52,854 bases of DNA from Candidatus Liptonbacteria bacterium (GCA_023244935.1 JAHFLJ010000002.1:1-52854), one strand, 5' to 3'. Positions 41,343 through 52,854 are shown, counted from the first letter of the stretch. Notes: generated by a model from the letters alone, not told the origin. Program-made: numbers and translations.

Positions 41343-41471
41343 ATGACGTATCCGCCCAAGGAATATTATTCGAGTCAGGAAGAGACGAAGGAGACTCAGA
41401 AAATTTCGCGGATTCTTTCTGTTCTGGGATTTGTGGCTTTGGTTATTGGAGTGCTACTGCTCGGAATTTAA
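41343..41471 (+). CDS. 42-aa tail-anchored small membrane protein (unannotated in the ORF track)
   Basis: An AAAGGAGG Shine-Dalgarno sequence lies 6 nt before ATG 41343. Translation: MTYPPKEYYSSQEETKETQKISRILSVLGFVALVIGVLLLGI. A terminator follows immediately. Confidence 0.55.
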   Translation: MTYPPKEYYSSQEETKETQKISRILSVLGFVALVIGVLLLGI

Positions 41472-41497
41472 AAACCCCTTTCGGGGTTTTTGTTTTA
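41472..41497. terminator. intrinsic terminator between convergent genes
   Basis: Stem aaacccc / ggggttt with a 4-nt loop, followed by ttgtttt. Confidence 0.65.
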
Positions 41498-41498
41498 G

Positions 41499-43046
41499 TT
41501 AGTTTTTTTTCTTTGGTGAATATCTGTGAATTCCGTATTTATGGCGGAAGTTGATATACCAACCGGAAATTCCACCGATTAGAGATGCCACGATCATAAT
41601 CATTATAAATGCCCCAACGTAAACATTGTTTGTTTTTATGGGGCCGATTTGAATCAGAACTCCTGGCGCAACGTTAAATTCGTGAATTCGAGAGTTTACA
41701 CTAACAGCTCCTCGTTTATCGACAGCCTGCAAATATATCTTATATTTTCCTTCTTCGAGAGCTTTTGGCCATACAAAAGAGAATCTTCCGTCCGGATCGC
41801 TTCTTACGATACGTTTTTCTTCGTCTTCGCCAAGCTTTGTGACAAAAATGTATACACTGGAATCAGGGTACGTTGCGCCATCCAAACTTAAAAAGTCACC
41901 GCTTTTTAATGCATCGGAATACACGTTCATTTGCGGTGGATCAATCGGAAGCACGTTTATTTCCGTATAGGCAACAGTTTTGTTTCCTGCTCTGTCAATT
42001 GCCTGAATCAGTAAAGTGCGTTTCCCTGGAAGTTGCTTTGGCAACATAAATGCGTCTACGGCTACTGCGCTGTTCGAAATGTCGAAGAAGTCCCCATCGC
42101 CGATTTTAGCCTGATATTTTTCAACTCCCGAAACGCTATCTGATGTTACAAAAGAAACTATCGGACTTGGATCTGATAGTTCTTGACCATTTTGAACCGT
42201 GATTTTAAACGGAGCTGGAGGGGTCGTGTCCACGTTAACTCTAAAGTGTGAAATGGACCCTAATCCATTTTTGTTTTTCAGTTGAACGTGAAAATAAAAA
42301 GTTCCATCTGGAATATTTTCTACCGTCTTTTCGGTTGTGTCCGCTGAGTTCAAAATGGTTGGGAGAGAGTTTGCCGATTTATTAAGAAGTGTGCGGACTT
42401 GAGTTACTCCGTCCGGAAGTGGCCGCCAGCTGAAAGTAGCATTGTTTTGCGAATACCATTTGTTCGGATCGGGATGAGTCGGGGATATTATTTTTGGAGC
42501 AGCCGGAGAATTTTCGGCAATGGATGGGGTGGTTACTTCGGCATTAGCTGGAGTTTGTGGGACGGTATTTATGTTGTAGTGACCTCCGGATATTGCCTTT
42601 AAGACATTCGTACCGGTTCCGTCGTTAGCTAATATTGAAGCAGACGAGAACGTAGTATCTGCTAAGCCGTAACCTTTAGCTCTAAAGTTTACGGTAAGAA
42701 TTTTAGCACTTGGTCCTGTAAACCCTGGGTTTAATATTACTCCTTCGAAATTAACTGTTCCGGCTTGGTTGGAGAAAGTTGGTTCCTGAACCCATAGGCT
42801 CATTATTGTGCCAGTTTTTGATATTGAGGTAACTTCCAGCGTGTCTGACGGAAAAGAAAGTATTCCTGAGACTGCATTTATTGCGGAGTCTGGACTCGAA
42901 ACATATATACTTACCGAAAAACTCTGTCCCTTGCTGTAATTTCCTAAGGAAGGAGTTACGAAAATGTCAGCTGCGTTCGCACGCGAAAAACTTCCGACTA
43001 TCAAAGCTATTGAAAATGTGAATATTATTTTAAATTTACGTTGCAT
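41499..43046 (-). CDS. cohesin-like domain surface protein with Ig-like domains and a C-terminal membrane anchor
   Basis: 515 aa with a signal peptide. The N-terminal ~150 aa (SFSVSIYVSSPDSAINAVSGILSFPSDTLEVTSISKTG...GTVNFEGVILNPG...KILTVNFRAKG) match the cohesin pattern. The C-terminus has the TM helix VGAFIMIMIVASLIGGISGWY plus a basic tail. Confidence 0.65.
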   Translation of the reverse strand: MQRKFKIIFTFSIALIVGSFSRANAADIFVTPSLGNYSKGQSFSVSIYVSSPDSAINAVSGILSFPSDTLEVTSISKTGTIMSLWVQEPTFSNQAGTVNFEGVILNPGFTGPSAKILTVNFRAKGYGLADTTFSSASILANDGTGTNVLKAISGGHYNINTVPQTPANAEVTTPSIAENSPAAPKIISPTHPDPNKWYSQNNATFSWRPLPDGVTQVRTLLNKSANSLPTILNSADTTEKTVENIPDGTFYFHVQLKNKNGLGSISHFRVNVDTTPPAPFKITVQNGQELSDPSPIVSFVTSDSVSGVEKYQAKIGDGDFFDISNSAVAVDAFMLPKQLPGKRTLLIQAIDRAGNKTVAYTEINVLPIDPPQMNVYSDALKSGDFLSLDGATYPDSSVYIFVTKLGEDEEKRIVRSDPDGRFSFVWPKALEEGKYKIYLQAVDKRGAVSVNSRIHEFNVAPGVLIQIGPIKTNNVYVGAFIMIMIVASLIGGISGWYINFRHKYGIHRYSPKKKN

Positions 43047-43047
43047 T

Positions 43048-43923
43048 TTATCTAGACGCTTTTCTTCGTCTATATATTATTATTCCTATTAATAATAATA
43101 GCAGAACTATTAAAACTGAAAAGAGTGAATAGTTGATAATTTGTTTGTTTGTAGAGTTAGTACTTTTTGGTATTTTAACTACAATAAAACTTTTATCTTT
43201 CGAAACGGCTCGGACGTATATATCCCCTTTAATTTTTTGGTCCTCCAGTAAATATGGAGACTCCGCATTCTTCCAGACACCGACGTTATCCAGTCCAGTT
43301 TCCAGAACTTCGTAGTGGTCAATTCCTGAGCTCTTGTCGGTTGTGGAGAATATTAAAACATTTTTTCCAGAATGAATATTTGGATCAGAAATTATGATCG
43401 GCGAGAAATTTTCTGGAGGTATTGTTGCGGTTCTGCTGGGGGTTGTGGTAGCAATTAAAATAGAACTTTTAAATTTTAACTCACCCTTATTTATTGTGGT
43501 TTCGGTTCCTAACCCATCGTTTAGGAGCGCAGTGGCGTCGTTTAGACTGAAACTTGCCTCTCCGCTTCCTGTAACACGCAGATATACTTTTACTAATTGT
43601 CCGCGAGAGCCATTATATCCACCCGGGACTATTCCGGCGAAGCGTATTGTGTTTTTAGATATGGATGGTTTTTCTATCCAGAAATTAACCAGAGATCTCG
43701 CATCGCTTACATCTTCTAGAACTATATTGTTGGAAGAAAATGTTAAGGTCGCCGAAACCGTATTTATTTCTTGATTTTCGGTATCAATCAGGATATTTAT
43801 CTCTTGTCTTCCGGTTCCAACTACATTCTTGTCGAGTAAAAAGTAGGCTGCATGCACACCGGCTGGTAAAATTCCCAAAAAGATGGCAATTATTAATAAT
43901 TTGATAGTTGTTTTGTGTGTCAT
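43048..43923 (-). CDS. cohesin-like domain surface protein with a C-terminal membrane anchor
   Basis: 291 aa with a signal peptide. It has EINILIDTENQEINTVSATLTFSSNNIVLEDVSDARSL...IRFAGIVPGG...QLVKVYLRVTG. The C-terminus has the TM helix LFSVLIVLLLLLIGIIIY followed by RRRKASR. Confidence 0.6.
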   Translation of the reverse strand: MTHKTTIKLLIIAIFLGILPAGVHAAYFLLDKNVVGTGRQEINILIDTENQEINTVSATLTFSSNNIVLEDVSDARSLVNFWIEKPSISKNTIRFAGIVPGGYNGSRGQLVKVYLRVTGSGEASFSLNDATALLNDGLGTETTINKGELKFKSSILIATTTPSRTATIPPENFSPIIISDPNIHSGKNVLIFSTTDKSSGIDHYEVLETGLDNVGVWKNAESPYLLEDQKIKGDIYVRAVSKDKSFIVVKIPKSTNSTNKQIINYSLFSVLIVLLLLLIGIIIYRRRKASR

Positions 43924-43932
43924 GTTTTTATT

Positions 43933-45135
43933 TTAGCCCGTCCAATAATAAGACATGATGCTGAAGTCCACTAGATTTATTTTTCCATCGCCATTCAAAT
44001 CTACCTTGGCTATTGCTTCTTTAGTGAGCGTTCTTTTGTACCAATATGCTAGCACTGAAAAATCTACCAAATTTACTCGGCAATCGTCGTTCGCATCTCC
44101 GCTTTTAGGACATTTTTTCCCCGGAGCGAGGACATCTCTTGTACCAACCAAAAAATTTAAAGTGTCAGAAAATGTAGTAATGTCTCCATCCTTGGCGCTA
44201 TTTGCTTTTACAAAGTGGCTGCCGCTTTCGATTTCGCTTGTATCAAATTTATACAGCCAGACACCATCTTTGTCCGCTGCGGTTTTTTTTAGCAATTCTT
44301 TTTCGGAATTAATGCGGATTGAGACTTCGGCGCTTGGAACGCTTTGTCCTAAGATGTTAAGAATTCCACCTCTTGCTACTTCGGTTTTATCAATGGAGAT
44401 CGTCGGAGGAATAAATATTCCACTTACTAGGGTGGTGGCACCGGAAGTGAGCGAAATCGCAAATTGCTGAGTTATTGAGCGACCTCCTTTATAATCTTCT
44501 GCCCAAACTCCAAAATTGTACGTTCCTCCGGAAAAATCAGAAAGTGTTATTTGAAAGTTAGCGCTCGCATCAGCGACTGTAATTGCGACAACCTGTGCGT
44601 CTTTCAAGAGAGTGATATTGCTTTTAGGATATGCTCGTCCGCTAAAAACAACCTGAGTTGATGGTGGAGTATAATTATTTCCTCCCCCTCCACCTCCCCC
44701 TCCCCCTCCTCCACCTCCACCTCCGTTGCTGGGTGGCGGAGTATTGTTTGGAGTTGTGACACTTGCTTCGTTGCCGTATAGAGACATAACGTCGCCTATA
44801 AATGCAACGGTTCGGTAAAAATATGTAGTATTCGGGTTTACGCTGTTATCTAAGTATGTGGTGATGTTCGCGCCAACAGTTCCTATTTGTGAATATGTTC
44901 CTGCTGCTCCGATTTTTCTTTCGATTGCAAATCCGTCTTCTTCTGCGGAATTATCTGTCCAAGTTAGGCTTACTTGGCTTGGAGAAGGAGCGGTAGCAAC
45001 AAAACCTCCCGGGGCGTTAGGAATAACGATAATTTTAACTAGACTGCTTATATTCTCTGCGTTTGCATAATTGCTACTGATGAGCGCAAAAGAGCCTATG
45101 AGGACTAACCCGAATAAGCGTTGAGAGATGTTCAT
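43933..45135 (-). CDS. secreted FN3 / Ig-like protein with a Gly14 linker and a C-terminal type I dockerin
   Basis: 400 aa with a signal peptide. The FN3 region is PSQVSLTWTDNSAEEDGFAIERK...TTYFYRTVAF and the linker is G14. The duplicated dockerin Ca-binding repeats are GDANDDCRVNLVDFSVLAYWY and DLNGDGKINLVDFSIMSYYW. Confidence 0.75.
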   Translation of the reverse strand: MNISQRLFGLVLIGSFALISSNYANAENISSLVKIIVIPNAPGGFVATAPSPSQVSLTWTDNSAEEDGFAIERKIGAAGTYSQIGTVGANITTYLDNSVNPNTTYFYRTVAFIGDVMSLYGNEASVTTPNNTPPPSNGGGGGGGGGGGGGGGNNYTPPSTQVVFSGRAYPKSNITLLKDAQVVAITVADASANFQITLSDFSGGTYNFGVWAEDYKGGRSITQQFAISLTSGATTLVSGIFIPPTISIDKTEVARGGILNILGQSVPSAEVSIRINSEKELLKKTAADKDGVWLYKFDTSEIESGSHFVKANSAKDGDITTFSDTLNFLVGTRDVLAPGKKCPKSGDANDDCRVNLVDFSVLAYWYKRTLTKEAIAKVDLNGDGKINLVDFSIMSYYWTG

Positions 45136-45143
45136 TTGTAAAG

Positions 45144-46040
45144 TTATTTGCGACGCCTTTTTTTGAAAATAAATATTAAAAGTAAAACTACCAGAGCTAA
45201 TATTCCATACGCATACACCTCGTGTCTTTTAATATAGTTCAATAGCCTAGCCACCGGGCCGTTTAGAGTTCCTGCTTTAAGTACGTTAAAAACAGTTTTT
45301 TGGCTGGCGATAAGAGTATCACCCTTATAAAACGCTACATTTGCCCAATATTGCCCGACTCCGACATAAAAATCTATAGGAAATTCAACTACAAACTCTT
45401 CTTCTTTAAATGCCGGTACTTCCGGAAAACCGTTAGTTTTTTGAATGTATGCCAATCGTACCGAGCCGTATTTATCTAAAAGTTCGTAGGTTGCGCCGGT
45501 AAATGCCTCCGGAACATTTCCGAGGTTATTTAATCTGACTAAAACTTTCGGATTCCATCCTTCTTCGATATCAAGCGGTTTAATAATCGGAACATTGAAG
45601 TTCTCGTAAATTTCATCGCCAACTCTTAAGTTCAAAATAAGTTGAGCTCCTAAGGCTATGGTAACTTGACCGGTCTGCGATGGTTTGGTTGTGAAACTAA
45701 TATTTCCGTTATAAATCCCCAACTCGGTATCGTTTGGGACTTTGATGGTTATTTTTACCGGAAACTGTTTAATTCCTTGTGGAATTATAAACTCGGGTCC
45801 TTGGTCGATAACAATCCACGGTTTTATTTTCTCAGGTATTTCAAGGTTTGCCTTAATACCTAAATCTGACGTTGGTTGATCTTGAATTAGATATACGGTT
45901 TGAGTATATTCCGCTCCTTTAACTAAATAAGTCGCATTTAAAAACGGTGGAGAAATTCCAAAGGCCGCTTCGGCAATTTTGGTTTGAAAAGCGAATATTA
46001 ATCCAAGCGCCAGAAGTAACGAGGATACTTTAAATTTCAT
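45144..46040 (-). CDS. two-domain Ig-like surface protein with a C-terminal TM anchor (DUF916/DUF3324 CscA-like architecture)
   Basis: 298 aa. It has a signal peptide, FGISPPF...G.EYTQTVYL, IPQGIKQFPVKITIKVPNDTELGIYNGNISF, a second beta domain, and a C-terminal TM helix plus KKRRRK. Confidence 0.45.
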   Translation of the reverse strand: MKFKVSSLLLALGLIFAFQTKIAEAAFGISPPFLNATYLVKGAEYTQTVYLIQDQPTSDLGIKANLEIPEKIKPWIVIDQGPEFIIPQGIKQFPVKITIKVPNDTELGIYNGNISFTTKPSQTGQVTIALGAQLILNLRVGDEIYENFNVPIIKPLDIEEGWNPKVLVRLNNLGNVPEAFTGATYELLDKYGSVRLAYIQKTNGFPEVPAFKEEEFVVEFPIDFYVGVGQYWANVAFYKGDTLIASQKTVFNVLKAGTLNGPVARLLNYIKRHEVYAYGILALVVLLLIFIFKKRRRK

Positions 46041-46089: not shown

Positions 46090-47019
46090 TTATTGGAATA
46101 AAGCCGTGAAAACGTTCGTACCGCTATAAGTTCCGGTTGCGGTTCCGCCAGGTACTGCTAATCCCCAAAAAGTTGTTTTGCTACTTGTTGCGGTCGAGGT
46201 TGGAGCAGTTATTGCAAATCCAGGTACGGTGGTTGGCGTGCCACTTAAGGCTATTCCACCTGCACCGTAGGTGAACGAGCTACTTGCATAAACCTGAGAG
46301 CTGGTTGCGATAATATTCGCACCTGATGTTAGGGTTGGATTTGCACTAAGTTGTATGGTGCTTGAAGAATTTCCTACGTTTTCTACTAAAACCTGCTGGT
46401 TGGTTGCACCGGTATTTGTATTTGCGGAAATAGTGCCGTAATTAATGGTTGTTGTAGCCAAGCTTATTGCCGTTAAAGTATTTAGAACTACTGTTGACGG
46501 AGAATCAGCTGAGCTGGTTGCGATTGAGCCATCTTGAACGATTACGGTCGCTATCCAAAATTGCCCAGGGAAACTCGAGGAGGCATCAGTTGCTTGAGAG
46601 AAATATTGAATATTAAAAGTCGTGGTAGCAACCGCAGTTGTTGATGTTCCGGTACAACTGTTTGTTTGGAAGGATTGCTTATAGCAGTTTACGGGATTTT
46701 GAGCGGAAATACAGCTAGAGGAAGTGAAGCCTGAGCGATAAAGATAAACAGTTGAAGTTCCCGAAGTAAACACGTCGGAACAGCCGTTGTTATCGGTCAC
46801 TGTAGCGCCAACCGTTACCGTTGTAGTTCCGTTAGCATTTAAGGTTATTGGACTTACTCCGCCATTTACTAAAACTGCAGAGGCGGTCGGAGCTGAATTT
46901 CCGACCAAAACCGAGCTGGTTACAGTTGCAGCAAGAATTTGATTAAATATTAAAGCCGCACCGACTAAAAATACACCAATAGCAATATTTCCAATTAACT
47001 TTCGTGTTTCCTTTTTCAT
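46090..47019 (-). CDS. Thr/Ser-rich secreted protein, paralogue of 47069..48106 (WxL-like C-terminal domain?)
   Basis: 309 aa with an N-terminal anchor/signal. It has a Cys-containing beta domain (VTDNNGCSDVFTSG...NCYKQSF..NSCTG). The C-terminus reads INYGTISANTNTGATNQQVLVENVGNSSSTIQL...FWGLAVPGGTATGTYSGTNVFTALFQ. Confidence 0.5.
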   Translation of the reverse strand: MKKETRKLIGNIAIGVFLVGAALIFNQILAATVTSSVLVGNSAPTASAVLVNGGVSPITLNANGTTTVTVGATVTDNNGCSDVFTSGTSTVYLYRSGFTSSSCISAQNPVNCYKQSFQTNSCTGTSTTAVATTTFNIQYFSQATDASSSFPGQFWIATVIVQDGSIATSSADSPSTVVLNTLTAISLATTTINYGTISANTNTGATNQQVLVENVGNSSSTIQLSANPTLTSGANIIATSSQVYASSSFTYGAGGIALSGTPTTVPGFAITAPTSTATSSKTTFWGLAVPGGTATGTYSGTNVFTALFQ

Positions 47020-47068
47020 ATGAATTTATTATATCACATTTAATCTGAAAAGAATGTGTATAACTTTT

Positions 47069-48106
47069 TTAATTCGTCCACACGGCTGTAATTGTGTTTG
47101 CCCCAGTATAGGTTCCTATTGGGCTTCCGGCGACAGCCGAAATTCCCCAATAAATATTTTTTTGCATTGCTACGGTTGAGGTTGGTTTGGTTAAAAAGAA
47201 TCCGGTAACTGTTGTGAGTATATCGCTGAGCGCAGTATCTCCGGTATTGTACGTGAAAGTATTTGTAGCGTAGTGTTGAGAACTTGTGGCGAGGAAATTT
47301 GTATTAAAAGTTAGAGCAGTACCTGAAACTTTGAGGGTGCTGGATGAGTTTCCGGTATTTTGGATACCAATAATTTTATTTGTTGATCCGGTATTTTGCC
47401 CCGCACCAACCGTTTCGTAATTTAGAGTGCTAGTTGATAGATTAATTGCCAAAAGTGTATTTAAACTAACTCCGGTTGAGGTGGCCGTCGAGCTAGAGTT
47501 CCCTGTGTTGCTTACAGTGACTTGAGCTTGCCAGTTTTGTCCGGAGAATGTTGACGATGAATCGGTAGGATCGGCAAAATAATAAATCGGAATTGTCGAA
47601 GTTGCCGTCGCGGTGTTGCCGCTCACACAATCGTTCACTTGAGCATTAGTTATATAACAATTTTGATTATCCGCGGTGCAATTTGGCCCAACTCCGGAGC
47701 GGAAAATTGTGGTTGTTGCACCTCCTCCGGTAAAAACCGATGAGCATCCGCTATTGTCGGTTACCGTAAATCCAACGCTGATTGAAGTTGTTGAGTTCGA
47801 AATAAGGGTTATCGGATTTCCTCCATTAAGTAATACTGCAGTGACATTTAGCGTTGAGATAGCCGAGGGATAATATTGATAACCCGCGAGAACTCCAAAA
47901 TTTGTGGAAGTGCTCTTGGAAATGCCAATCTGTCCTTGAGTGTCGTTTAACCGAAAATTTGTAGATGTGCCGAAGCCACCACCAGGCGCAATTACCGGAT
48001 CTTTAACCTTAAAATTAGTTGAGGTGTAGTCTGTCGCCTTGGCAGTTGCTACTGTTAATAGTAGAAGGGCTATGAATATGTATGAATTTTTCAAGATTGG
48101 TCGCAT
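47069..48106 (-). CDS. Thr/Ser-rich secreted protein, paralogue of 46090..47019, with an N-terminal STNF triple repeat
   Basis: 345 aa with a signal peptide. STNF occurs three times (YTSTNFKV, GTSTNFRL, STSTNFGV). It has the same Cys-containing domain (VTDNSGCSSVFTGG...NCYITNA..NDCVSG) and the same C-terminal domain (LNYETVGAGQNTGSTNKIIGIQNTGNSSSTLKV...IYWGISAVAGSPIGTYTGANTITAVWTN). Confidence 0.5.
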   Translation of the reverse strand: MRPILKNSYIFIALLLLTVATAKATDYTSTNFKVKDPVIAPGGGFGTSTNFRLNDTQGQIGISKSTSTNFGVLAGYQYYPSAISTLNVTAVLLNGGNPITLISNSTTSISVGFTVTDNSGCSSVFTGGGATTTIFRSGVGPNCTADNQNCYITNAQVNDCVSGNTATATSTIPIYYFADPTDSSSTFSGQNWQAQVTVSNTGNSSSTATSTGVSLNTLLAINLSTSTLNYETVGAGQNTGSTNKIIGIQNTGNSSSTLKVSGTALTFNTNFLATSSQHYATNTFTYNTGDTALSDILTTVTGFFLTKPTSTVAMQKNIYWGISAVAGSPIGTYTGANTITAVWTN

Positions 48107-48185: not shown

Positions 48186-48650
48186 TCACTTTGTTTTCTT
48201 ATGAGCTGGAGGCGTAGCTACTTTTTCATCGGTTGTGGTTGCTAGTCCTGTTGCTGTGGTGCTTGCAGTCGTCGGCTGTTCTGCTCCGGTCTCATCTATT
48301 GTAATTGGAGCGACTTTAACGATTCGATTTTCGGATGGATTGTAAAGAAATGCCTCTTTGGCATTGCTAAAAATGAACAACTTATCGTTTTTTTGAGCGT
48401 TAATGAAAAAAGGCTGATCTTTGAGTTGGCCAGGATCGATTACCGTAGCAATCGTTGGTGTCTCCCCTTTCGGGATGACAATTAACTTTGAGACTGCTGC
48501 GAGTAGAGATTGAGCGTCCATTTCAGCTTTTGGCTCTTCTGATTTTTGTGTATTTGTGACTAGAGTTATTTTTTTAATTTCGTCACGAAAAAAATACGCC
48601 GAGGTTAAGGTAAAAATTGCGAGGGTTATTAATAAAAACCTTTTATTCAT
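48186..48650 (-). CDS. hypothetical N-terminally anchored protein (154 aa)
   Basis: ATG-initiated ORF with the signal/anchor LLITLAIFTLTSAYFF. It is co-directional within the surface island. Confidence 0.5.
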   Translation of the reverse strand: MNKRFLLITLAIFTLTSAYFFRDEIKKITLVTNTQKSEEPKAEMDAQSLLAAVSKLIVIPKGETPTIATVIDPGQLKDQPFFINAQKNDKLFIFSNAKEAFLYNPSENRIVKVAPITIDETGAEQPTTASTTATGLATTTDEKVATPPAHKKTK

Positions 48651-48689
48651 AAGTTCGTGTTGAGATTTTTTTGTATATTCAGTCGTGGA

Positions 48690-49109
48690 CTAATTATTGG
48701 CTTCCAACTTATTTATCGCCATAATTATATTCGAGTCGCTTCTTAAGTCTTCTATAAACATAATACTAGAGCGATTGATTTGCATTTGATTTGTCGGTCC
48801 GTGGAGTTCGCTCCCGAGTTTCACGAGATTTATACTTGAAGGGGTCTGTTCGCTACTTGTATCTGTAGATTGAGCAGGGTTGGTCTGTAGATAATATATG
48901 TCTCGAAGCGTAAGCCAGAGATTATTTTGATTGGAAAGTTTGCCGAAATAGACTTGCCCGTTAGTCATAAAGACCGCCTGATACTCTCCGGAATTTTTAT
49001 TAAATAAACTAAACGGAAAAATTTCAAATTTAATAAGAAGACCTATAGCCATCAATATAACAACGACGATGATTGTTTTATTCCAAAATCCAATTTTCTT
49101 GTTTTCCAT
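48690..49109 (-). CDS. hypothetical N-terminally anchored protein (~139 aa)
   Basis: ATG at 49109 (MENKKIGFWNK...); the ORF-track start at 49127 is a TTG. It has the TM helix IIVVVILMAIGLLI. Confidence 0.5.
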   Translation of the reverse strand: MENKKIGFWNKTIIVVVILMAIGLLIKFEIFPFSLFNKNSGEYQAVFMTNGQVYFGKLSNQNNLWLTLRDIYYLQTNPAQSTDTSSEQTPSSINLVKLGSELHGPTNQMQINRSSIMFIEDLRSDSNIIMAINKLEANN

Positions 49110-49147
49110 TTTATTAATATAACACAAATCGTAATTATCCGAAAATT

Positions 49148-52100
49148 TTACGGCGCTTCGCCTCCTCCACCATCAGCTCCTCCTCCACTAACAGTGCCTC
49201 CTCCGGGATTTCCACTGTCGCCACCATCAATTTCCCCTCCAAGGAGTGTTCCGGTTACTGGTGGAGCACCTTCGAATCCATCGTCGCCACCACCGCCAAA
49301 ATATCTGAACGGCTTGGCATGATTAACTCCGGTTACAAATCCGGTTTTGGAATCCGTAGTGGTTATATTTTCTGTGTGGAGTAAGAGGTTTAGGTAATCG
49401 GCATAACCAATATTTATAACGTTGAGTTGAAGTAATACTTGGCTTGTTGTCGCTACGGTCCAATTATTTCCAAAGAATATACTACCGGTGCCGTTTGTAA
49501 TAGTGGTTGTTCCATTGGATCCTAGTTGCGAATCTTCGATATCAACGATTCCATTTGCGTTTGAATCAAGATAAAGTTTTGCGTTTGTAATGTCGGCGCT
49601 TTCAAAACCACTTTGAGCTGAAATTGTTATTGTGGTAGCAGTTATGCTTATGCTTCCACTGCTTGAAGTTAATTTGTATCGGAATAGCGTAGAGGATGTA
49701 ACTTGTGTTTCGTTTATATCGAATTGGTTTGTTTGTTGCCCAACAATGTGATCGCTTAAGGTTAAAGTTTTAACTCCGGAGACCGGTGGCACATACGAGG
49801 TCGCGCCCGTCCACTGGAAAGTTGCCATCATAAAATCGATGTTCGGACTGAAATTGGTTGACGTGGGTGCGTCAACTGTAGTGCGGATGTTCATACTCAT
49901 TCGGTTGTTGACTGTATCCACGTAGTCTTCGGGATTGGTTGTGAACCCGTGCAAGCCGCTCACACCGACACCTCCGATTGTAACGGCATCTTGGTAACTC
50001 ATAGCCAGAGTTTGAGCTGCTCCCCAAGCTGTCCAACCACCTAAGGCTCCGGAAAGTCCGGAATAGTCACGGATACCAACTTGCATTGTGCTGGATGCAC
50101 CGGGTGCAAAACGGGCGGCGTAGTAAAGGCTGGTGACTGCGGCACCTGACGGAACAGTAACTCCGAAATTGAAGTTCGCGGCGACAGCTTCTCCGATGGT
50201 CGCATTTGCATCGGTGTTTAGCGGATAGTAGTCGTTTCCTGTTCCCATATTGGCAGATTCATCTTCGGCAAGAAGATTCCAACTGTTTGTATCTCCGGTT
50301 GTATTAATATTCCAAGTAGAGGTCGGATAACTGTTTCCGAAAGTTGGCGTGGAAGTGGAAAGTAATCCGGTTGTAGCATTTCTTTTTTCAATTATCCATT
50401 TAGTACCGGAAGGCGTGGATGATCCGTAACCGACGGCGTAGAGATTACCCCCGTCAACAGCCAGGGCCATAAACTGGTCTTCGCTTCCTTCTTCGGCGGC
50501 AACGTGTCCGTCGCCGTCAAATGTGGTAGTGGCGACACCGGTTGTAATATCGTATTTGTCGATACGCAGACGACCGACAGTTCCGATAGTTAACGAGTCT
50601 ACTCCGGCGAGATATACACCGGTTGCGTCAGTTCTCACTGATTGCCAAATTTCTCCGGTTGCAGCAGTATGATTCATTTCAACGATTCCGTCGGTATCAA
50701 AAGCAGTGACGAGTGCGCCGGTTGAGGTCGCACGTTTTTCAAGTCTTGCCCTACCTGTTCCACCATTCAAAGTTGAAGAAGCGTAACCGGCGAAGTAAAG
50801 AAAATTTCCATCGTTGGTCATGCTGTAAATTTCATCGACGAGAGTTGTCGGGTTACTTTCAAGAACACCGCTCGTTGCGAAAGTGCCGACGAAGGCACCG
50901 GTTGTAGCGTCACGTTTTTCCACGCGCCAACCTGTGTTTAACATTGTGGTTGAGGAGGCCGAACCGGCGACATACAAATCGTTACCGATAACATTGACCG
51001 TATATGGAGTATCAAGACCGGTACCGGGATTGCTGGAAGTTGTACCATTCACACCAAAAGCGGCAACTAGCGCACCGGTTGAAGTTGCACGTTTTTCAAT
51101 TCTCCAAGAGCTATTTGCGGCACTCGAAGAAAAGTCGGTTCCTACTATATATAGATAGTTGCCGTCGGTAGTCATTCCGGTGGCTCGATCCAGTCTGACG
51201 CTCGGATTGCTGCTGGTTGCTCCACTGACACCAAAATTCGAATCCAAAAGACCGGTAGTCGCATTTCTTTTTTCCAGATACCAAATGCTGTCATTGGTAC
51301 TACTTGCATAACCGACGGTAAATACAGAATCTCCGGCGAGAACTACTGAGTTGATTTCATCGTTGGTGATCGAAGGGTCGGAAATGGCAACACCGGAAGA
51401 TGCGAAAGCTGTGACTAGTGCACCATCGCTAAGATTTCTTTTTTCAAGACGCCATCTTCTATCTCCCCCGTTTGAGCCAAAACCACCGACATACATGTAT
51501 GTTCCATCTTCGGCAATATACGCAGGGCGGTCTTCACCAACTGATCCGTTAATCACCAATCTACCTGCAGTTGAAGTACCGAAAGAAACATCGGTTGAAG
51601 TCGGCGTGCTTCCGAGAGTCAAATATATGGAATCGATTACCAGCGAAGTTGTGCTGGTCGAAAGGCCGTAGTCACGAATCCAGATTTCACTAGAAGAAGA
51701 AATGTAATCACCGATAGTTGCAGAGTTTTTGGCAAAATAGTTCATAGGGCTTGCAGCAAGACAATCAATTGGTTGAGAAATATTTTCCCAAGTGCTTCCG
51801 GTGAAGTTGCGGATAGCAAATTGATACTGAAGATTTTGAGTTGCGGCTGAACAGTAGGCTTCGGTCGCTACAAGGATAGTGTTCATTCCGTTGTACGCTT
51901 TCACATTATCAAAAGTCAGATAGAAGTCAGAAGTAGTTGCTGCGGTTCCCGGAACGGAAAGTAAAATACCATCACCGGCAGTGTTGGACATTATTCCTCC
52001 TACTACGTTTCCGAATATTTGCGTGTTTGGATATATTCCAGTTACCGTACCTCCAGAATTTTTATTGAATCCGGCGGCGCTATATATCGGATCAACTATT

Positions 52101-52854
52101 GCGTTTACACGAAGGTAATCGACGGAAAGATTTCCTAGTGGAGTACTGGAAGCAAAATATCTCATTCTCATTTGGCCGTTGTTCACAAAATTAGAGAGAG
52201 GCGTGGCTATGGGGATGCCGCTCGTTGAATTTGTTGTCCAATATCCGTCGTAGATAGACCATTGCAAAACATCTCCTGCGCCTGCCGTGTCGTTATAGAA
52301 GTAAGGAGTGTTGTTAACAGTTCTGGAGTTCAAATAGCGCCAACCACCTCCGGTACACCTGGCGTCCGCTGCATGATCTACCGAAGAAGTGGATACAAAG
52401 TCACAAATTTCCAGGAGCAAGTTTGTAGTCGTAGTTGCGACAACGATATCAGTTTCTACAATCAGTTTATTGGCGCCATTCAATTGAAAGTTATCAAAAA
52501 CAAGATTCATATCTATACCGCTTGCCGTGGTGGAGGCGCGCCAATGGAAAGAGTCGTCGGCAAGGGTTCCCTTCCAGGAACCGACGTTCATTCCGGTTGT
52601 GGCAGCTGCTCCTTCGGAGCGAATAGGCATTTCATTACCGGTTACAAGTTGGCCCCCGGTGGGAGTGAATTGGTAGGTTTCCGATGGATGGCTTCCGTCT
52701 TCCGTCCACTGTATCGTCGCCATCATAAAGTCTATGTTCGGACTGAAATTGGTTGACGTGGGTGCGTCAACTGTAGTGCGGATGTTCATACTCATTCGGT
52801 TGTTGACTGTATCCACGTAGTCTTCGGGATTGGTTGTGAACCCGTGCAAGCCGC
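49148..52854 (-). CDS. giant surface protein (>1,233 aa, N-terminus outside the window) with a seven-unit delta-60-type repeat region and a Gly-rich C-terminus
   Basis: The frame is open to the window edge; the ORF-track Met is a TTG inside GLHGFTT. There are seven ~55-aa repeats ending W(R/Y/I)(L/I/V)EKR..(T/S)(T/D)G.L...F...G (for example WYLEKRNATTGLLDSNFGVSG). A ~170-aa module ending LHGFTTNPEDYVDTVNNRMSMNIRTTVDAPTSTNFSPNIDFMMAT.QWT is duplicated. Confidence 0.7.
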   Translation of the reverse strand, partial: GLHGFTTNPEDYVDTVNNRMSMNIRTTVDAPTSTNFSPNIDFMMATIQWTEDGSHPSETYQFTPTGGQLVTGNEMPIRSEGAAATTGMNVGSWKGTLADDSFHWRASTTASGIDMNLVFDNFQLNGANKLIVETDIVVATTTTNLLLEICDFVSTSSVDHAADARCTGGGWRYLNSRTVNNTPYFYNDTAGAGDVLQWSIYDGYWTTNSTSGIPIATPLSNFVNNGQMRMRYFASSTPLGNLSVDYLRVNAIVDPIYSAAGFNKNSGGTVTGIYPNTQIFGNVVGGIMSNTAGDGILLSVPGTAATTSDFYLTFDNVKAYNGMNTILVATEAYCSAATQNLQYQFAIRNFTGSTWENISQPIDCLAASPMNYFAKNSATIGDYISSSSEIWIRDYGLSTSTTSLVIDSIYLTLGSTPTSTDVSFGTSTAGRLVINGSVGEDRPAYIAEDGTYMYVGGFGSNGGDRRWRLEKRNLSDGALVTAFASSGVAISDPSITNDEINSVVLAGDSVFTVGYASSTNDSIWYLEKRNATTGLLDSNFGVSGATSSNPSVRLDRATGMTTDGNYLYIVGTDFSSSAANSSWRIEKRATSTGALVAAFGVNGTTSSNPGTGLDTPYTVNVIGNDLYVAGSASSTTMLNTGWRVEKRDATTGAFVGTFATSGVLESNPTTLVDEIYSMTNDGNFLYFAGYASSTLNGGTGRARLEKRATSTGALVTAFDTDGIVEMNHTAATGEIWQSVRTDATGVYLAGVDSLTIGTVGRLRIDKYDITTGVATTTFDGDGHVAAEEGSEDQFMALAVDGGNLYAVGYGSSTPSGTKWIIEKRNATTGLLSTSTPTFGNSYPTSTWNINTTGDTNSWNLLAEDESANMGTGNDYYPLNTDANATIGEAVAANFNFGVTVPSGAAVTSLYYAARFAPGASSTMQVGIRDYSGLSGALGGWTAWGAAQTLAMSYQDAVTIGGVGVSGLHGFTTNPEDYVDTVNNRMSMNIRTTVDAPTSTNFSPNIDFMMATFQWTGATSYVPPVSGVKTLTLSDHIVGQQTNQFDINETQVTSSTLFRYKLTSSSGSISITATTITISAQSGFESADITNAKLYLDSNANGIVDIEDSQLGSNGTTTITNGTGSIFFGNNWTVATTSQVLLQLNVINIGYADYLNLLLHTENITTTDSKTGFVTGVNHAKPFRYFGGGGDDGFEGAPPVTGTLLGGEIDGGDSGNPGGGTVSGGGADGGGGEAP

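Follow-up and report, generated by a model that had tools for sequence, protein, structure and literature searches.

The three consecutive genes encoding P3, P2 and P1, found in the 52.8 kb stretch of DNA analysed here (the window), appear to specify a non-cellulosomal cohesin-dockerin module for surface display, conserved across Patescibacteria, a reading to which a probability of about 0.7 can be given. P3 (43933..45135; an ORF of 400 aa) is a dockerin adaptor protein, P2 (43048..43923; 291 aa) a small cohesin anchor, COH-S, and P1 (41499..43046; 515 aa) a large cohesin anchor, COH-L. All three lie on the minus strand, as do the domains and upstream genes described below, and the ORF listing bears out the spacing of 1 and 9 nt between them given in the original prediction. 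The same trio occurs in hundreds of small-genome Patescibacteria; it is thus probably a core route by which these cells hang proteins on their surface, and not a means of cellulose degradation.

In the proposed mechanism, P1, P2 and P3 would all be exported via Sec. P1 and P2 would each remain anchored in the cytoplasmic membrane through a single C-terminal helix, whose basic tail lies in the cytoplasm, and each would carry one cohesin at the outer end of its stalk, which is built from three Ig-like modules in P1 and from a single one in P2. P3 would be released and its C-terminal dockerin would plug into a cohesin, so that the head, which varies by lineage and is FN3-like here, becomes tethered to the cell surface together with the poly-glycine hinge and the conserved Ig-Ig stalk. 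Binding of the P3 dockerin to the cohesins of P1 and P2 is predicted from the invariant adjacency of their genes. This binding would be expected to depend on calcium, and the head of P3 would be its functional, outward-facing part. With 52.8 kb of the genome in view, further partners bearing a dockerin or a cohesin may be encoded elsewhere.

Patescibacteria (CPR) account for a large part of the diversity of bacteria, yet the composition of their surface is little known. The module would represent a concrete and testable conserved surface structure of CPR cells, in which a plug and socket of the cellulosome type is reused without enzymes.

Domains of the dockerin and cohesin proteins

P3 begins with a signal peptide (…YANA/EN), and a hydropathy scan finds no membrane helix at its C-terminus. 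The dockerin occupies residues 343-400 (43936..44109). In the PF00404 check suggested with the original prediction, Dockerin_1 is matched at residues 346-395 with an E-value of 9.3e-8 and 32.6 bits, against a cut-off of 22.9. The duplicated calcium-binding segment reads exactly as had been quoted, with DANDDCRVNLVD…FSVLAYWY and DLNGDGKINLVD…FSIMSYYW forming two tandem F-hand calcium loops, each followed by an FS(I/V)xAYW-type helix. Both loops fit the D-x-N-x-D…D12 pattern (D1, N/D3, D/N5, D12), and these columns are near-invariant in 83 sequences. In the same 83 sequences Cys343 and Cys352 are both present in 36, both absent in 43 and discordant in 4; a disulfide probably staples the dockerin in this genome. 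P3 has more than 1873 homologs, which belong to Patescibacteria wherever the source names the organism.

The remainder of P3 is modular. The FN3 module claimed for its head (approximately residues 41-125; 44761..45015) stands only in part, as the Pfam fn3 match of P3 itself is sub-threshold (E 0.026), while many homologs carry PF00041 in a precomputed table. Heads in the P3 family vary by lineage and include FN3-like, Cys-rich, STNF-type and other forms. The linker that follows, at residues 138-152 (44680..44724), contains 15 glycines rather than the 14 first reported; 76 of 83 family members contain 5-20 consecutive glycines, and glycines form invariant columns of the alignment. Beyond it lie two Ig-like domains of the Big_6 type (approximately residues 156-335; 44131..44670), for which Pfam Big_6 scores above its cut-off (E 3.5e-5), in keeping with the Ig-like modules originally proposed.

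P1 and P2 have the features expected of exported membrane proteins, as had been predicted. Both begin with signal-peptide-like N-termini (P1 …SRANA/AD, P2 …GVHA/AY), and the hydropathy scan finds a single C-terminal helix in each, at approximately residues 475-498 of P1 (41553..41624), with the basic tail NFRHKYGIHRYSPKKKN, and residues 263-284 of P2 (43072..43137), followed by an RRRKASR tail. In P1 the signal peptide is followed by a cohesin domain, a Pro/Thr linker and three Ig-like modules before the helix and tail, whereas in P2 a cohesin and one Ig-like domain fill this space. The Ig-like modules of P1 match Pfam Big_13 and Y_Y_Y above cut-off, and the protein also gives a sub-threshold match to an NCBIfam OmpL47-type domain. 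Homologs of P1 are named ‘cohesin domain-containing protein’ by NCBI.

The cohesin domains were placed at residues 26-162 of P1 (42561..42971) and approximately residues 26-155 of P2 (43459..43848). Neither protein matches Pfam Cohesin (PF00963) at E<=1 or any cohesin model in NCBIfam, and the assignment therefore needed family-level and structural evidence. Single-sequence searches of the PDB with the two N-terminal domains returned only chance antibody matches, and the best cohesin found there with a family sequence profile, 3l8q, was insignificant at E 0.51. At the family level, PF00963 is matched by 12 of 22 aligned domains, with a best E-value of 2.1e-7; the wider family of the P1 cohesin comprises 9066 cluster representatives. 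An AlphaFold2 model of the P1 domain has a pLDDT of 96.9, and its best 44 Foldseek matches in the PDB are all cohesins (E 1e-8, with TM of 0.75-0.81 for the best). These include the single-cohesin anchors 4dh2 and 3ul4 and, in third place, the non-cellulosomal cohesin 2xdh of Archaeoglobus fulgidus. The modelled fold agrees with the nine-stranded flattened beta-sandwich (jelly-roll) of solved cohesins and lies nearest to cellulosomal type I cohesins. The N-terminal domain of P2 is a paralog of that of P1 (27% identity, BLASTP E 3e-14), and 4 of 10 of its orthologs give near-full-length but sub-threshold PF00963 matches. The predicted cohesin fold is thus supported by the family profile and the model for P1, and by homology to P1 for P2.

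Conservation of the gene trio

The dockerin protein is found in at least 490 species-representative genomes. All related genomes that carry a lineage label are Patescibacteria, in agreement with the earlier suggestion of a small-genome bacterium, and closed genomes with the module measure, for example, 808 and 882 kb. Two and sometimes three cohesin genes lie downstream of the dockerin gene in all 75 loci with room for them, and the order of dockerin, small cohesin and large cohesin is invariant among these. COH-S orthologs directly follow the dockerin gene in every informative locus, and the cohesin and dockerin genes share a strand, the one exception being the third cohesin ORF in locus L069. 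A single dockerin gene is present in each of 82 fetched loci. COH-S and COH-L are about 30% identical in every locus, and natural COH-S/COH-L fusion proteins exist. As the same gene order is seen in every sufficiently long related locus, the arrangement of the trio is far beyond chance.

Median identity across loci reaches 63% in the dockerin and 51% in both the COH-L cohesin and the Ig-Ig stalk (82 loci for the stalk); for the neighbouring housekeeping genes it is 45% (fmt) and 55% (def). The dockerin and the COH-L cohesin are conserved like fmt and def, and are under strong purifying selection. The cohesin of P2, at a median of 35%, is much less conserved than that of P1, and for this reason it may bind another ligand.

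The invariant pattern, in which a single dockerin gene is accompanied by two or more cohesin genes of ancient divergence, invites a different picture. Here the two cohesins would hold the internally symmetric dockerin simultaneously, each on its own helix face, and the resulting 1:1:1 heterotrimer would form a fixed, membrane-anchored envelope structure instead of presenting two docking sites as alternatives. The near-invariance of both dockerin halves, the natural fusions and conservation at the housekeeping level would all agree with this. However, a type I dockerin normally binds a single cohesin at any one time through a dual binding mode (as in C. thermocellum and C. cellulolyticum complexes, e.g. 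2vn5), the stalks of P1 and P2 differ about three-fold in length, and some loci carry three cohesin genes; such a heterotrimer is considered rather unlikely. The same degree of doubt applies to its widest form, in which the trio, probably together with the upstream gene product g298, would be a phylum-wide core envelope complex, with a dockerin clamped at once by two membrane-anchored cohesins and interchangeable heads (FN3-like, Cys-rich or STNF-type) on a poly-glycine hinge, for host contact or surface-layer anchoring. If this reading were true, the complex would be the first cohesin-dockerin system to serve as a conserved structural organelle and not as an enzyme organiser.

For the surface-display module favoured here, a role in host-cell attachment is a guess. 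Cultivated Patescibacteria live attached to other cells (PMC10633639). A structural role in the envelope fits at least as well, because the rate at which the conserved parts evolve is as low as that of housekeeping genes. Should the head turn out to mediate host contact, the module would provide a handle on host specificity; if its role is structural, it would be a new use of cohesin-dockerin chemistry.

The surrounding surface-protein operon

The trio was originally described as a minimal system, but it proves to close a conserved operon with nine or more surface-protein genes and does not stand alone. A palindromic, terminator-like hairpin (41469..41492; a consensus match only) is located 7 nt past the P1 stop codon, between P1 and the convergent fmt gene, and likely marks the end of the operon. 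A promoter scan of the operon returned fewer sites than were found in shuffled controls.

In the fetched loci the dockerin gene is usually preceded by a gene for a membrane-anchored protein with two Ig-like domains. Here this is g298 (45144..46040; AlphaFold2 pLDDT 88), which has a signal peptide, two Ig-like domains, a C-terminal membrane helix and an RRRK tail. A g298-like gene lies directly upstream of the dockerin gene in 42 loci, and g298 probably joins the trio in the same assembly, as the fourth member of the module. Its layout of signal peptide, two Ig-like domains and C-terminal membrane helix is also that of WxLIP (DUF916-DUF3324) from the WxL clusters of enterococci and Listeria (PMC10599100), and both are encoded beside secreted surface proteins that are held non-covalently. 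In a Foldseek search of the PDB the g298 model matched E. faecium WxLIP (9i25_C and 9i1y_A) at E 6e-10, with TM of only 0.32-0.38, and pilus chaperones, also with low TM. Pfam searches of g298, g309 and g345 gave no match to DUF916, DUF3324 or WxL, and PDB sequence searches gave no match either. The likeness to WxLIP is best regarded as an analogy, one that concerns the neighbouring gene g298 and not the trio. It had also raised the idea that g309 and g345 are WxL-type proteins, which was kept only as an analogy, as Pfam WxL was not matched and a PDB sequence search with g345 was empty.

Further upstream, g309 and g345 (46090..48106) are paralogs that encode secreted proteins rich in Thr and Ser; in other lineages, dockerin proteins have the N-terminal STNF segment of g345 as their head. 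They are preceded by g154 and g145, which encode small, N-terminally anchored proteins, and by a gene that continues past the end of the window and encodes a giant repeat protein of more than 1233 aa (together 48186..52849). In 19 loci the gene directly upstream of the dockerin gene is g154-like. Modules are shuffled among the operon proteins, according to a domain table compiled in a single pass, an iterated profile search from g345 having drifted into dockerin ORFs.

This shuffling is compatible with the possibility that the cohesin-fold domains bind some other ligand, such as a glycan, the host surface or the upstream gene products, and that the dockerin attaches P3 elsewhere. The cohesin fold is a generic beta-sandwich, with YcnI and GH123 domains among the lower-ranked Foldseek matches of the P1 domain, and the window's own domains miss Pfam Cohesin. 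Nevertheless, the strict dockerin-cohesin adjacency in 75 of 75 loci and the position of the dockerin and COH-L cohesin as the two most conserved pieces of the module make this unlikely; moreover, dockerins are not known to have an established partner other than cohesin.

Pfam and NCBIfam scans found no glycoside hydrolase, carbohydrate-binding module or multi-cohesin scaffoldin among the operon proteins, as the original prediction had held for the hydrolases, and the presence of dockerin and cohesin domains in an operon without enzyme domains upholds its proposal of a non-cellulolytic anchoring scaffold. Unlike scaffoldins, which are defined by multiple cohesins and/or a carbohydrate-binding module, P1 and P2 carry one cohesin each, and within the window the dockerin is fused to FN3-like and Ig-like modules only, rather than to a catalytic module. 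The trio might still be the anchoring end of a cellulosome- or amylosome-like system, with dockerin-bearing hydrolases encoded elsewhere competing for the two cohesins; the P1 fold is nearest to cellulosomal type I cohesins, and the view is limited to 52.8 kb of the genome. This is highly improbable, however, given that P3 carries the sole dockerin within the window, that hydrolase and carbohydrate-binding domains were not detected in the operon proteins, that each of the 82 loci has a single dockerin gene, and that the genomes are small, with closed examples of 808 and 882 kb.

Comparison with other cohesin-dockerin systems

One of the closest parallels to the surface-display module is provided by OlpA and OlpC of the Clostridium thermocellum cellulosome (3ul4, 4dh2), which place one cohesin on each cell-bound protein and pair with a type-I-like dockerin containing two calcium loops, as the module would. 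Their complexes are among the best structural matches of the P1 domain, with TM of 0.76-0.81, although sequence identity is only 11-19%. Clostridial single-cohesin anchors bind the cell wall via SLH modules, whereas P1 and P2 would be anchored by a C-terminal membrane helix. The clostridial cargo consists of enzymes or scaffoldins, while the cargo here lacks an enzyme domain, and the canonical Ser-Thr recognition pair is replaced here by Leu-Val.

Non-cellulosomal modules share the use of the cohesin-dockerin pair as a general protein-protein plug outside cellulose degradation. Examples are known from A. fulgidus (2xdh), the toxin complexes of Clostridium perfringens (2vo8, 2jh2, 2w1n) and the amylosome of Ruminococcus bromii (7urp). 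These are scattered examples from single species, whereas the trio is a fixed three-gene operon in hundreds of species of one phylum; it is further set apart by its membrane-anchored cohesins, poly-glycine hinge and variable head. No description of the trio was found in the literature on dockerin and cohesin in Patescibacteria, in a search whose coverage largely excluded subscription journals, so that absence is unproven; the trio is rated as a variant of non-cellulosomal cohesin-dockerin systems previously undescribed in the literature searched.

One dockerin-domain protein of a Patescibacterium, SEML1_0315 of Southlakia epibionticum (Saccharibacteria), has been reported to be essential by Tn-seq (PMC10633639). 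Like P3 it is a dockerin-bearing envelope protein with no catalytic domain; unlike P3, it is 927 aa long, and its gene stands by itself, flanked by those for an alpha/beta hydrolase and a tRNA. Its length and the lack of adjacent cohesin genes rule it out as an ortholog of P3 and of the trio module, and the supplementary text files consulted on it contain no mention of cohesin or dockerin.

Candidatus Microsyncoccus archaeolyticus PMX.50 carries the module as well (locus L073). This organism is kept in co-culture, which would make experiments on the module feasible.

Dockerin and cohesin domains of the gene trio

Three consecutive minus-strand genes encode a dockerin protein, P3 (43933-45135, 400 aa), a small cohesin anchor, P2 or COH-S (43048-43923, 291 aa), and a large cohesin anchor, P1 or COH-L (41499-43046, 515 aa). 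The ORF listing separates them by gaps of 1 and 9 nt, as the original prediction had stated. A hydropathy scan and direct reading of COH-L and COH-S reveal in each an N-terminal signal-peptide-like segment with an AxA-type site at its end, and a single C-terminal hydrophobic helix (residues ~475-498 and ~263-284, respectively) accompanied by a basic tail. In P3, which ends in …GDANDDCRVNLVDFSVLAYWYKRTLTKEAIAKVDLNGDGKINLVDFSIMSYYWTG, there is a signal peptide, and the scan found no membrane helix; the topology originally predicted for all three proteins thus agrees with the scan. The glycine linker described in P3 is also present, although it runs to 15 residues (138-152) rather than 14.

The claim that P3 carries a canonical duplicated dockerin is borne out. 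Pfam Dockerin_1 (PF00404) matches residues 346-395 with an E-value of 9.3e-8 and 32.6 bits, above the curated cut-off of 22.9 bits, and there are two 12-residue loops, each following the F-hand pattern with D1, N3, D5 and D12. Further Pfam matches in P3 are to the Ig family Big_6 and, below threshold, to fn3; in a precomputed table, many P3 homologs carry PF00041 and PF00404. When 83 dockerins were aligned (82 fetched loci plus the window), the loop columns and the subsequent F-S-I-x-A-Y-W helix were nearly invariant. At loop positions 10, 11, 17 and 18, which make the cohesin contacts in clostridial type I dockerins, the family consensus is L-V-A-Y in both halves, with Ser at position 17 of the window's second half. 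The dockerin is therefore internally symmetric, yet hydrophobic where clostridial type I dockerins have their canonical Ser-Thr pair. A symmetric dockerin might be held by both cohesins simultaneously, an arrangement that we consider unlikely. Two cysteines (KCP…DDC), one directly before the first loop and the other at loop position 6, are both present in 36 of the 83 dockerins, both absent in 43 and discordant in 4, a co-occurrence pattern that is the signature of a predicted disulfide.

Neither P1 nor P2 matches Pfam Cohesin at E<=1, and PDB sequence searches with their domains and with the family profile returned nothing meaningful. The two domains are paralogs (27% identity, E 3e-14). The N-terminal region of P1 has 28 close homologs, Patescibacteria or Parcubacteria wherever named, several of which have the NCBI name ‘cohesin domain-containing protein’ or a PF00963 assignment. 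In an alignment of 22 domains, comprising those of P1 and P2 and 20 homologs, 12 individually match PF00963 (best E 2.1e-7) and no other family recurs. Among ten COH-S orthologs of other genomes, four also give PF00963 matches that are near-full-length but sub-threshold. Residues 26-162 of P1 were modelled by AlphaFold2 with the 22-domain alignment as input, yielding a highly confident model (pLDDT 96.9, pTM 0.90). When this model was searched against the PDB with Foldseek, cohesins accounted for all of the top 44 matches (lowest E 1.4e-8; the best with TM 0.75-0.81). These include 4dh2 and 3ul4, from single-cohesin anchoring proteins, and 2xdh, a non-cellulosomal cohesin from Archaeoglobus fulgidus. 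The family matches and the model therefore uphold the cohesin fold first proposed from sequence pattern. The cohesin family is large; when the profile of the alignment was run with HMMER against 1.84 billion cluster representatives, 9066 proteins matched at E<=0.001, 5782 of them at E<=1e-10.

Conservation and synteny across Patescibacteria

More than 1873 P3 homologs were found among only 8000 scored candidates, with ~55-60% identity among homologs over the C-terminal 60% of the protein (Ig-Ig-dockerin), and when each species was represented by a single genome, at least 490 genomes encoded a P3 relative. Of the loci, the best 80 were fetched. Their lineage labels are Paceibacterota, Minisyncoccia, Kaiser-, Wolfe-, Magasanik-, Uhr-, Portnoy-, Campbell-, Jorgensen-, Taylor-, Veblen- and Torokbacteria, together with a few automated labels, ‘Saccharibacteria’ or ‘Gammaproteobacteria’, that are not to be trusted; Candidatus Microsyncoccus archaeolyticus PMX.50 is among the organisms.

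Synteny was examined in 82 loci, these 80 plus two further related loci, L001 and L002, using six-frame ORFs with cohesin and dockerin profiles. Each contains exactly one dockerin gene, and in 75 it is followed downstream by cohesin genes, two in 66 loci and three in 9 (L006, L030, L032, L052, L057, L059, L068, L069 and L078). These share the strand of the dockerin gene, the third cohesin ORF of L069 being the sole exception. Where there are two, the first product is always ~290-330 aa and the second ~400-600 aa. The remaining seven loci have one cohesin gene or none; in six of these the contig stops at that point, and in L036 the ~1.9 kb available downstream did not reveal a second cohesin. 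Two separate dockerin loci, L028 and L056, come from a single MAG (CAZOGP01).

Between loci, median identity is 51.5% for COH-L domains and 36% for COH-S domains, while COH-S and COH-L are ~30% identical to each other within loci as well as between them. They are therefore, as judged from these identities, ancient paralogs older than the divergence of these lineages. Natural fusions of COH-S and COH-L into a single chain occur in two metagenome proteins (P0269 and P0273), in which the first part's membrane helix precedes the second part's signal peptide. A long coiled-coil-like cytoplasmic tail, lacking in P1, is present in many COH-L homologs.

Compared with the window's proteins, the loci show a median identity of 63% for the dockerin, 51% for the Ig-Ig stalk and 51% for the COH-L cohesin, falling to 35% for the COH-S cohesin and 34% for the COH-L stalk. 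The corresponding values for the products of the neighbouring genes, Fmt and Def, are 45% and 55%. Thus the dockerin ‘plug’ and its main candidate socket, the COH-L cohesin, are as constrained as housekeeping enzymes. Surface proteins rarely show such constraint, which is consistent with a conserved interface; that the dockerin and these cohesins do not bind each other is unlikely. In contrast to both domains, P3 varies in its head, the region preceding the glycine run. An FN3-like head is found in the window's lineage, a Cys-rich CGDG…EQCDG module in ~16 loci, and an ‘STNF’ triple-motif segment ahead of an FN3-like domain in ~25; the rest have heads of other types. Between head and stalk, 5-20 glycines are found in 76 of 83 sequences.

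Predicted display of P3 and relation to known systems

The best-supported reading of the sequences and model is that membrane-anchored cohesins display docked P3. COH-L and COH-S would be type I membrane proteins, each bearing its cohesin at the end of an Ig-like stalk, the two stalks differing in length. Secreted P3 would dock via its dockerin, presumably in a calcium-dependent manner; once docked, it would display its conserved Ig-Ig stalk, flexible glycine hinge and lineage-specific head. The analysis establishes the domain identities, the topology signals, the synteny and the selection pattern; from these we infer the binding, its dependence on calcium, its stoichiometry and the role of the head. 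It had been proposed that no glycoside hydrolase is attached to this system, and Pfam and NCBIfam scans of the operon proteins detected neither a glycoside hydrolase nor a carbohydrate-binding module. A genuine enzyme-recruiting system, its enzymes encoded elsewhere in the genome, is unlikely given the single dockerin in the window and in each fetched locus, the non-catalytic cargo and genomes below 1 Mb. Two closed genomes with the module, OZ246418.1 and OY970358.1, measure 808 and 882 kb.

Cohesin-dockerin pairs outside cellulosomes are of an already known kind, and non-cellulosomal systems of A. fulgidus, C. perfringens and the R. bromii amylosome are among the structural matches of the P1 model. 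Members of both families are already labelled by annotation pipelines, and the domains themselves are unsurprising. The literature searched yielded no description of a fixed dockerin/small-cohesin/large-cohesin operon in Patescibacteria that combines membrane-anchored single cohesins, a poly-glycine hinge, a variable head and housekeeping-level conservation. The sole CPR paper found to mention a dockerin concerns Southlakia (PMC10633639); unlike the trio, its 927 aa protein stands alone, with no cohesin neighbours. The trio represents a concrete, testable and widely conserved piece of the poorly understood CPR surface.

The surrounding operon

The trio forms the end of a minus-strand run of at least nine genes with short gaps, in the order giant repeat protein, g145/g154, g345/g309, g298, P3, P2 and P1 (the g-proteins being named by length in amino acids). 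L001 and L002 have the same order. The giant surface protein (49148-52849, minus strand; >1233 aa) runs off the window and has no Pfam family. It contains ~60-aa repeats (WR…EKR…TGAL…; in the DNA, three 49-nt repeats ~180 nt apart), a glycine-rich C-terminus and a single calcium-loop-like motif, DSNANGIVDIED. A 153-nt direct repeat lies within its ORF (49807-49959 and 52702-52854; 96% identity, 2895 nt apart), and the end of the second copy coincides with the window edge, making a contig break within a repeat probable; the protein lacks its N-terminus, or part of it may have collapsed.

g154 (48186-48650, minus strand) is a small, N-terminally anchored protein, as is g145. The gene directly upstream of the dockerin is g154-like in 19 loci, mostly those with an STNF-type head, and g298-like in 42. 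g345 and g309 (46090-48106, minus strand) are paralogous Thr/Ser-rich secreted proteins, 47% identical, for which no Pfam family was found. Their C-termini (…FWGL…GTYSG… and …YWGI…GTYTG…AVW) are loosely reminiscent of WxL motifs, with no match to the WxL profile. Their body forms the C-terminal domain of the giant proteins in L001, L005, L010 and L038. The triple S-T-N-F beta-strand segment, DYTSTNFKVKDPVI…GTSTNFRL…STSTNFGVLAGYQYY, is the N-terminus of g345 here (residues ~11-85; 47852-48076, minus strand) and the head of the dockerin protein in other Patescibacteria lineages (L003, L015, L040 and ~20 more loci). This shuffling of modules within the operon family supports the suggestion that a single surface assembly is built by the operon as a whole.

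g298 (45144-46040, minus strand; 298 aa) combines a signal peptide and two Ig-like domains with a C-terminal membrane helix and an RRRK tail; its homologs, at 50-59% identity, are all annotated as hypothetical. A model built from 38 homologs (pLDDT 88) shows two Ig-like sandwiches. Foldseek matched it, with low TM-scores of 0.3-0.4, to the WxL-interacting protein (WxLIP) of Enterococcus faecium (9i25, 9i1y; E 6e-10), pilus chaperones and RbmA. A role in keeping secreted WxL proteins at the wall has been proposed for WxLIP, itself membrane-anchored and with two Ig domains (PMC10599100). Pfam and PDB sequence searches gave no support for this relationship, and the likeness of g298 to WxLIP is one of layout only. 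At the other end of the trio, between P1 and the convergent fmt-def genes, a perfectly palindromic, GC-rich hairpin flanked by A/T runs (41469-41492) is a candidate bidirectional terminator.
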